In this document: one piece after another, positions 62,586 to 62,643 of the stretch
Numbering within the stretch: position 1 is the first letter of the stretch
How the letters are laid out: each line of letters starts with the position of its first letter
Source of the DNA: a virus
Taxonomy: Duplodnaviria > Caudoviricetes
Length of the DNA: 64,000 bases
Direction: 5' to 3' (one strand)
IMG/VR virus record: IMGVR_UViG_3300031784_000006
Translations under genes and position numbers: made by a program
The notes under the pieces: generated by a model
Databases searched by the model: none
What the model was told of the DNA's origin: nothing
Seen by the model: the letters and a program-made list of their open reading frames with translations, nothing else

Positions 62586-62643
62586 TTCCCAAAGTAGGAT
62601 TCGAACCTACAAGTTATAAACTTCTACCTTTTAGATTTTAGGA
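62586..62643 (-). ncRNA. 58-nt mini-tRNA with truncated anticodon arm (UAU)
   Basis: TCCTAAA/TTTGGGA-A acceptor; perfect T arm GTAGG-TTCGAAT-CCTAC. Confidence 0.65.

Follow-up and report, generated by a model that had tools for sequence, protein, structure and literature searches.

A 58-nt element in the tRNA array of the window, by which we mean the whole 64,000-nt stretch of viral DNA that was analysed, is a real, tRNA-derived sequence that has an intact acceptor/T minihelix, lacks a working anticodon arm and cannot decode. We refer to it as the mini-tRNA. Its tRNA-like but non-decoding nature, with acceptor and T arm kept and the anticodon arm lost, had been recognised in the original prediction, and all the letters quoted there (acceptor, A73-type discriminator and T arm) were found on the minus strand. 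Our tentative reading, to which we would give slightly less than an even chance, is that the mini-tRNA mimics a tRNA without decoding and is cut out by RNase P and RNase Z.

The window comes from a T4-like cyanomyovirus of a freshwater cyanophage lineage, and the Rfam families found in it are PhotoRC-II, the wcaG RNA, a glutamine-riboswitch-type motif, a group I intron and 11 tRNAs, with the tRNA array lying on the minus strand at 59284-62767. No close DNA relative was found among 50,697 isolated phages, and the stretch is present in metagenome runs from 15 studies, mostly lake or freshwater, dated 2017-2025. The features around the mini-tRNA are collected in Table 1.

Table 1. Features surrounding and composing the mini-tRNA (coordinates refer to the window; RNA positions are those of the element)
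Feature	Coordinates	Strand	Remarks	Called by
tRNA-Leu(UAG)	62685..62767	-	adjoins the promoter-like site on its upstream side	ARAGORN + Rfam
Promoter-like site, sigma-70-type, early	62656..62684	-	TTGACA-17-TG-n-TACTAT; 10/12 matches, TG present	
58-nt mini-tRNA, whole element	62643..62586	-	Rfam tRNA model 23.5 bits, model positions 1-71	
Acceptor 5' strand UCCUAAA	62637..62643	-	RNA positions 1-7, pairs with 51-57	
Junction nucleotides 8-9	62635..62636	-	position 8 (62636) is the sole variable site	
Reduced D-arm equivalent CUA-AAAGG-UAG	62624..62634	-	RNA positions 10-20; 3-bp stem, 5-nt loop ending GG	
Anticodon-arm equivalent AAGUU-UAU-AACUU	62611..62623	-	RNA positions 21-33	
T arm GUAGG-UUCGAAU-CCUAC	62594..62610	-	RNA positions 34-50; G53-C61 equivalent present	
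Acceptor 3' strand UUUGGGA + discriminator A	62586..62593	-	RNA positions 51-58	
Four tandem hairpins, loops GAAC(C/G)GCCA or ACCGCCAC	62430..62585	-	fill the entire gap to tRNA-Gly	
tRNA-Gly(UCC)	62357..62429	-	in relatives directly after the promoter	ARAGORN + Rfam

Several other elements of the array and its surroundings deserve mention. The window carries two neighbouring, dissimilar tRNAs with a UAU anticodon (59359-59506, minus strand), and at the corresponding place in relatives (L190:3784-3873 and L143:6329-6415) ARAGORN calls one 90-nt "tRNA-Ile(tat)", for which Rfam gives only a weak tRNA-Sec-like match (34 bits). A short ORF with tandem KISD-type, NUMOD3-like repeats faces the array at 62905-63110 (plus strand) and is a probable homing-endonuclease remnant. 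The spacer between tRNA-Gly and tRNA-Asn (62245-62356, minus strand) holds two structured non-tRNA RNAs, one a hairpin bounded by CUUGGUAGUC...GACGCCAA and the other closed by a long-range stem GGAAGUU...AACUUCC. No Rfam family matches either of them, and variants of both occur in many further cyanophage contigs (L143, L151, L152, L179, L186 and L187 included), where they come after tRNA-Gly or tRNA-Leu, a conservation far wider than that of the mini-tRNA. In addition, the Rfam abiF RNA motif is found in related cyanophage tRNA arrays, at L152:4850-4886 (minus strand; 41.3 bits against a gathering score of 37) and, just 5' of tRNA-Leu, at L186:8397-8444 (plus strand; 32.6 bits).

Compared with the canonical tRNA (RF00005), the mini-tRNA has the 7-bp acceptor with one G·U pair (U4·G), followed by the discriminator A58, and a canonical T arm made of a 5-bp stem, the G53-C61 pair and a 7-nt UUCRANY loop. 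The GG of the D loop is also present, and the acceptor and T arm together go far beyond chance. The D arm drawn in the original prediction, UCUA-AAAGG-UAGA, can be paired around AAAGG, with U9-A21 as a possible fourth pair. What the element does not have is the 5-bp anticodon stem with 7-nt loop and the variable region of 4-5 nt, which is here 0 nt, and its position 8 is A or G and not U. CCA is not encoded (UUGG comes next), as is also the case for the tRNA neighbours. The GC content is 33%, compared with about 37% for the phage background and 50-60% for the 11 real tRNAs, and it falls to 23% in the middle of the element, yet the acceptor and T arms are flawless.

The Rfam tRNA model aligned with the mini-tRNA from end to end, below its gathering score of 29 bits (E=0.03 for all 4227 families and 1 kb searched). 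The Infernal alignment passes over the anticodon arm, where 4 nt stand in place of 17; position 9 is missing, two D-stem pairs are mismatched, and GGUA is matched to the D-loop consensus. ARAGORN missed the element at default, -ps and -ps80 settings. Only its metazoan-mitochondrial mode returned it, as a D-armless "Ser(aga)" that reads the middle in another way and requires a mismatch in a 6-bp stem, so the relaxed search proposed in the original prediction gave a call in mitochondrial mode and none in the bacterial modes. No tmRNA was detected by ARAGORN, and neither tmRNA nor YrlA models matched 61900-62900 in Rfam at E up to 10.

This alignment is what an inert pseudo-tRNA would give, having lost its anticodon arm by one internal deletion, together with position 9 and a few point changes. 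It would be hitch-hiking in a recently exchanged block of sequence, and any cutting by RNase P or RNase Z would be an unselected by-product. We regard this as the main rival of the mimic, a serious possibility although less likely than not. Infernal needs a single large deletion, the D loop AAAGGUA is canonical with two D-stem mismatches, and position 8 departs from the near-universal U8. The argument of the original prediction that decay would not shorten an arm so cleanly is therefore weak, given that Infernal describes a normal tRNA with one internal deletion in the anticodon arm. On the contrary, the composition is hard to reconcile with an inert relic, as drift that left a middle of 23% GC should have struck the arms too.

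We asked how far the middle of the mini-tRNA, namely the 26 nt that separate acceptor stem and T arm, is structured. With the arms held fixed, these nucleotides add only -2.9 kcal/mol, a value equalled by 28-52% of shuffled middles, and a middle no more structured than chance is what the deletion reading expects. A compact two-helix junction was obtained in 0.7-2.6% of shuffles, which is mildly unusual for a criterion picked post hoc, after the fold was known. The z-score of the whole-element shuffle (z=-1.06) is uninformative because shuffling wrecks the arms too. In the A8 form found in the window, the acceptor had pair probabilities of 0.76-1.0 and the T stem of 0.98-0.99, compared with 0.43-0.46 in the D-like stem (0.22-0.46 for a stem of 3-4 bp) and 0.59-0.87 in the anticodon-like stem. 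Five cloverleaf-type folds lie between -9.5 and -11.8 kcal/mol, the minimum energy being -11.9 kcal/mol. The collapsed anticodon arm carrying UAU, as originally described (a 7-nt UU-UAU-AA loop on 2-3 bp), has -9.5 to -9.7 kcal/mol and is just one of several folds that are near-equal to about 1 kcal/mol, whereas a 5-bp stem with a UAU triloop is stabler at -11.8 kcal/mol. On these modelled energies, the UAU anticodon arm is not secure as a defined structure.

The same results bear on the possibility that the element is a genuine, extremely reduced decoding tRNA-Ile(UAU), which we consider extremely unlikely. A UU-UAU-AA loop can be drawn, the discriminator is A73, and the two full UAU-anticodon tRNAs of the phage show a demand for AUA decoding, but these same two tRNAs would make the mini-tRNA redundant. 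Moreover, its anticodon stem has 3 bp at most, and the loop more likely closes into a triloop; variable region and U8 are missing, the combined D and anticodon limb amounts to about 6-8 bp against about 10, and the element falls below the Rfam threshold and is missed by ARAGORN in bacterial mode.

Position 8 is near-universally U in tRNAs. In the mini-tRNA it is A in the window and G in the loci L001, L190 and L191 as well as in DNA runs X9 and X14, making G8 the commoner form. The choice of base affects the predicted fold: in the A8 form the cloverleaf (-11.8 kcal/mol) wins over a rod-like fold (-10.7 kcal/mol), whereas in the G8 form the rod (-13.8 kcal/mol) wins over the cloverleaf (-11.8 kcal/mol) and the T-stem probability drops to about 0.1. 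As a control, 10 of the 11 genuine tRNAs of the window had a T-stem probability of at least 0.82, the exception being tRNA-Leu(UAG) with 0.11. The G8 effect would thus speak mildly against selection for a tRNA shape, but it is within model error. The destabilised cloverleaf of the G8 form is nonetheless a point in favour of the inert pseudo-tRNA.

The stability of the G8 rod also agrees with a reading in which the element is no mimic, either the rod-folded 5' part of a hairpin RNA or a DNA-level scar of recombination between tRNA genes or promoter cassettes. We judge this very unlikely. The canonical T loop, the G53-C61 equivalent and a T stem abutting a 7-bp acceptor are tRNA signatures and not those of a generic hairpin; the energy model also misfolds one of 11 genuine tRNAs, and the cloverleaf wins in the A8 form of the window.

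To place the mini-tRNA among phage tRNAs, a structural scanner that looked for a perfect 7-bp acceptor directly joined to a canonical T arm was run on 1.8 Mb of viral loci. Among the roughly 360 tRNA-type matches, the acceptor-to-T distance was 39-43 or 49-61 nt, with two kinds of outliers, the mini-tRNA at 26 nt (four copies, by far the shortest) and one unrelated element at 35 nt. The latter is a 67-nt tRNA-like element with a perfect acceptor and T-type arm at L068:12624-12690 (minus strand). A relaxed version of the scanner gave no more short elements in the viral loci, just internal pieces of normal tRNAs. Full-length tRNAs are abundant in related arrays (about 80 in 63 kb), where all of them score at least 51 bits and no relic tRNA of intermediate score was found, a point against the inert pseudo-tRNA.

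Pattern scans, in which acceptor and T loop were fixed and the middle was left free from 24 to 54 nt so as to catch full-size parents too, covered IMG/VR, JGI metagenomes and 185,579 prokaryotic genomes. They returned only three other copies (L001, L190 and L191) that differ from the window only at position 8, and the element is unchanged in its G8 form in contigs of the DNA runs, which come from two further studies. Four near-identical copies are thus known, all from one freshwater cyanomyovirus lineage. A separate pattern search for relatives gave ordinary tRNAs and tRNA- or tmRNA-like 3' ends. A parent tRNA with the acceptor and T loop of the mini-tRNA was found neither in these three collections nor among 264 distinct phage tRNAs, a result that weighs against a pseudo-tRNA. 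The nearest acceptor among the 264 is that of a cyanophage tRNA-Asn (TCCCAAG/CTTGGGA), whose T arm is different, and none of the tRNAs of the window is a relative.

The mini-tRNA had been described as the first element behind its own promoter, and this agrees with the promoter-like site of Table 1, which ends 12 nt 5' of the element and whose 17-nt spacer holds a 7-bp inverted repeat (ACAAACT/AGTTTGT). This site is part of a pair of 36-nt direct repeats with 78% identity (62650-62685 and 62827-62862) that bracket tRNA-Leu, each of them an early-type promoter (TTGAC-17-TACTAT, then ATAAAA) with an inverted repeat in the spacer. In T4-type phages, repeated promoter cassettes with stem-loops (PeSL) drive module shuffling (PMC2839356); the cassettes are strong and sigma-70-like, and the modules that they bound come and go between close relatives. 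The 36-nt repeats are candidate recombination cassettes of this kind. Repeated cassettes flanking modules fit the notion of a rod or recombination scar, because such cassettes shuffle modules in T4-type phages (PMC2839356), and so does the presence of other cargo at the same spot in L135 and L163, where an ORF lies directly behind the promoter after tRNA-Leu.

Downstream, the mini-tRNA heads a very strongly structured hairpin module, which corresponds to the hairpin array of the original prediction. Three of the four hairpins are paralogous tandem units, 74-77% alike and 37-38 nt apart, whose stems are kept intact through paired changes and G·U pairs that are functional on the minus strand only. 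The 220-nt module made of mini-tRNA and hairpins has a folding z-score of -8.2 when read on the minus strand, compared with -5.4 on the plus strand, and the mini-tRNA remains a closed domain in this context. The four-hairpin array was seen in this phage lineage only. Two- and three-loop motif scans of viral contigs and prokaryotic genomes, whose matches were filtered for hairpins, gave chance matches or unrelated tandem repeats among the matches listed, and a stricter three-loop scan of viral contigs had L001 as its sole match. We also considered pairing of the hairpin loops with tRNAs, namely complementarity to GUGGCGG of tRNA-Leu and GGCGGUUC of tRNA-Val, and rejected it as not significant, as 25% of random 16-mers do equally well.

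Mini-tRNA and hairpins together occupy about 214 nt between the promoter and tRNA-Gly. Nine related loci (five distinct sequences) lack this stretch and have tRNA-Leu, a homologous promoter and then tRNA-Gly at once; the same junction was found in an RNA-run contig. Since relatives go directly from promoter to tRNA-Gly, the mini-tRNA and its hairpins are a lineage-specific insert. The original prediction had allowed for a full tRNA in relatives at this site; they carry nothing there, and this also counts against the reading as a pseudo-tRNA, as no tRNA stands at the site from which it could have decayed. Searched by blastn against 50,697 phage records, the insert gave nothing below E=3, just T-arm similarity. 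The assembled contigs of RNA runs X15 and X18 include tRNA-Gly, the spacer RNA behind it and tRNA-Leu, but break off at 62419 and 62411 and leave 62438-62657 uncovered; DNA carry-over is possible in these contigs, so that they give no verdict on expression or processing.

Conservation across relatives had been proposed as a check on the element, and here the copies turned out to be nearly identical over a whole block, with no sign of selection on the fold. Between the window and the L190 lineage, only 2 of about 452 positions differ at ~62249-62700, whereas the flanks are 87-95% identical. This stretch of about 450 nt begins at the T arm of tRNA-Leu, takes in promoter spacer and linkers and closes with the spacer RNA that follows tRNA-Gly; at its edges the variable arm of tRNA-Leu and the tRNA-Asn gene are different alleles. 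In the sister lineage (L001 and L190), the variable arm of tRNA-Leu differs with paired changes and the tRNA-Asn allele is non-homologous. To judge from these comparisons, the stretch is a sharp-edged mosaic block. Separately, L001:3530-3640 (minus strand) and L190:~355-445 (plus strand) have an extra insert of about 100 nt, from a leader hairpin to tRNA-Leu and ending in ...CCUACCACCA, which the window does not have.

As the whole block is near-identical and has sharp edges, its identity is accounted for by recent exchange just as well as by selection. We had considered the conservation of the mini-tRNA as evidence for selection (1 difference in 58 nt compared with 3-7 expected from the flanks, P ~0.005-0.2), and this argument was rejected because the entire 450-nt block, promoter spacer and linkers included, is equally invariant. 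There is no covariation among the four near-identical copies, the single variable site being unpaired. A near-identity that spans sequence expected to be unconstrained, no covariation and a single lineage are all in keeping with an inert pseudo-tRNA.

Returning to the mimic, the features recognised by RNase P, RNase Z and the CCA-adding enzyme are the acceptor stem, the T arm and, from the elbow, the GG of the D loop. The mini-tRNA keeps the parts read by these enzymes and lacks what the ribosome and most synthetases need. We infer that it is transcribed, cleaved and given a CCA, and that this is selected and not a by-product. Transcription would start from the early promoter 12 nt upstream, with the mini-tRNA as first member of a unit that continues with the four hairpins and tRNA-Gly. 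The GG at the D-loop position could form the elbow, host RNase P would cut at the 5' end and RNase Z after A58, as CCA is not encoded, and the CCA-adding enzyme would then tail the cut element, so that a tRNA-like RNA of about 58-61 nt would be set free. The hairpin RNA of about 156 nt would gain a defined 5'-monophosphate end, and RNase P acting at tRNA-Gly would set its 3' end (tRNA punctuation).

In the original prediction a tRNA mimic was thought to act as a processing signal for the hairpin array. The parts addressed by processing enzymes and the hairpin context fit this idea, but selection at the level of the fold was not seen. Close relatives also manage without the element, which is confined to one lineage, and as the 3' end of the hairpin RNA would be released by tRNA-Gly processing anyway, it is not easy to see why a 5' handle would be needed. 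In sum, the AT-rich composition with flawless arms and the relic-free related arrays make us lean to function, while copies from one lineage that show no covariation, a middle no better than chance and the effect of G8 make us lean to a deletion relic.

A different role would be that of a decoy or sponge, an excised tRNA-like RNA that titrates a tRNA-binding factor; candidate targets are a host defence nuclease acting on the acceptor/T region, an aminoacyl-tRNA synthetase, the CCA-adding enzyme or EF-Tu. The acceptor/T minihelix and the elbow are intact, the element sits behind an early promoter-like site, and the linked hairpin array with its repeated loop motif resembles a multivalent binding platform. 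However, there is no recognisable identity set, no partner gene or defence context was identified, and comparative support is lacking, so that we hold a decoy to be quite improbable. As there is no credible anticodon stem-loop, the suggestion of the original prediction that anticodon nucleases might be lured is unlikely.

If the mini-tRNA is functional, phage tRNA arrays would go beyond codon supply and be expression platforms where tRNA-shaped handles allow the maturation enzymes of the host to release other small RNAs, and the element would provide a compact natural part to release exact-ended RNAs in cyanobacteria. As a mere relic, it would give a clean snapshot of tRNA gene death in phage arrays, with the adjacent hairpin array as the interesting object.

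With regard to known systems, the mini-tRNA is like the canonical phage tRNAs (RF00005) in its same-strand array, its acceptor, its T arm and its D-loop GG, and differs from them in the acceptor-to-T distance (26 nt versus 39-43), score (23.5 bits, under the gathering score of 29), GC content (33% versus 50-60%), A/G8 in place of U8, the missing variable region and 5-bp anticodon stem, and the fact that no parent was found. Truncated metazoan mitochondrial tRNAs have a similar length (~55-60 nt), and it is the mitochondrial mode of ARAGORN that calls the mini-tRNA as D-armless. However, those tRNAs keep the 5-bp anticodon stem and 7-nt loop and lose the D or the T arm, whereas the mini-tRNA is the opposite case, its T arm being perfect and its anticodon limb degenerate. 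Other phage RNAs of tRNA-like form are known substrates of RNase P, such as the precursor of the P1/P7 C4 antisense RNA and the phage M3 RNA; spacer RNAs processed by tRNA punctuation are a comparable case, and tRNA-like folds in phage transcripts let the host tRNA-maturation enzymes make the ends of other small RNAs (PMC11143913). These substrates have other architectures, none of which is reported to be a miniature of four arms whose T loop is canonical, and their function was shown experimentally, whereas that of the mini-tRNA is proposed. A non-exhaustive literature search turned up no earlier account of a tRNA mimic of this four-arm, miniature type from the tRNA array of a phage.

The tRNA-like small RNAs mascRNA and menRNA are cut from the vertebrate lncRNAs MALAT1 and MEN-beta. 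By its architecture, and not by descent, mascRNA appears to be the closest analogue of the mini-tRNA, with which it shares no sequence homology and which belongs to a different domain of life. Both are 58 nt long, with the acceptor at 1-7/51-57, the T arm at 34-50 and T-loop positions 39-43 (PMC11693755). In both, the D arm (~8-20) is reduced and gives two Gs, the anticodon equivalent (21-33) is a simple hairpin whose loop is compact, there are hardly any junction linkers and CCA is not encoded. In mascRNA, the two Gs of the reduced D arm form the elbow read by RNase P and RNase Z, and this layout suffices for cleavage by both enzymes and CCA addition, the RNA not being aminoacylated (PMC11693755). 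The near-minimum fold of the mini-tRNA has this layout (-11.8 versus -11.9 kcal/mol), with D and anticodon helices that are not above chance. The two differ in place and distribution, as mascRNA forms the 3' part of a long transcript, whose 3' end it defines, and is conserved from fish to human, whereas the mini-tRNA sits at a 5' end, upstream of hairpins and tRNAs, in one phage lineage. It is conceivable, although we find it doubtful, that the phage evolved a mascRNA-like miniature tRNA mimic independently of vertebrates, as a dedicated handle for RNase P, RNase Z and CCA addition behind an early promoter; the handle would launch a multi-hairpin effector RNA whose ends are defined and would itself become a stable CCA-tailed small RNA that has its own role. 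If true, this would be the first processing mimic of such kind described in a phage tRNA array, and a functional mini-tRNA would mean that the minimal mascRNA solution, an elbow and an acceptor with no anticodon limb, arose convergently in a bacterial virus.
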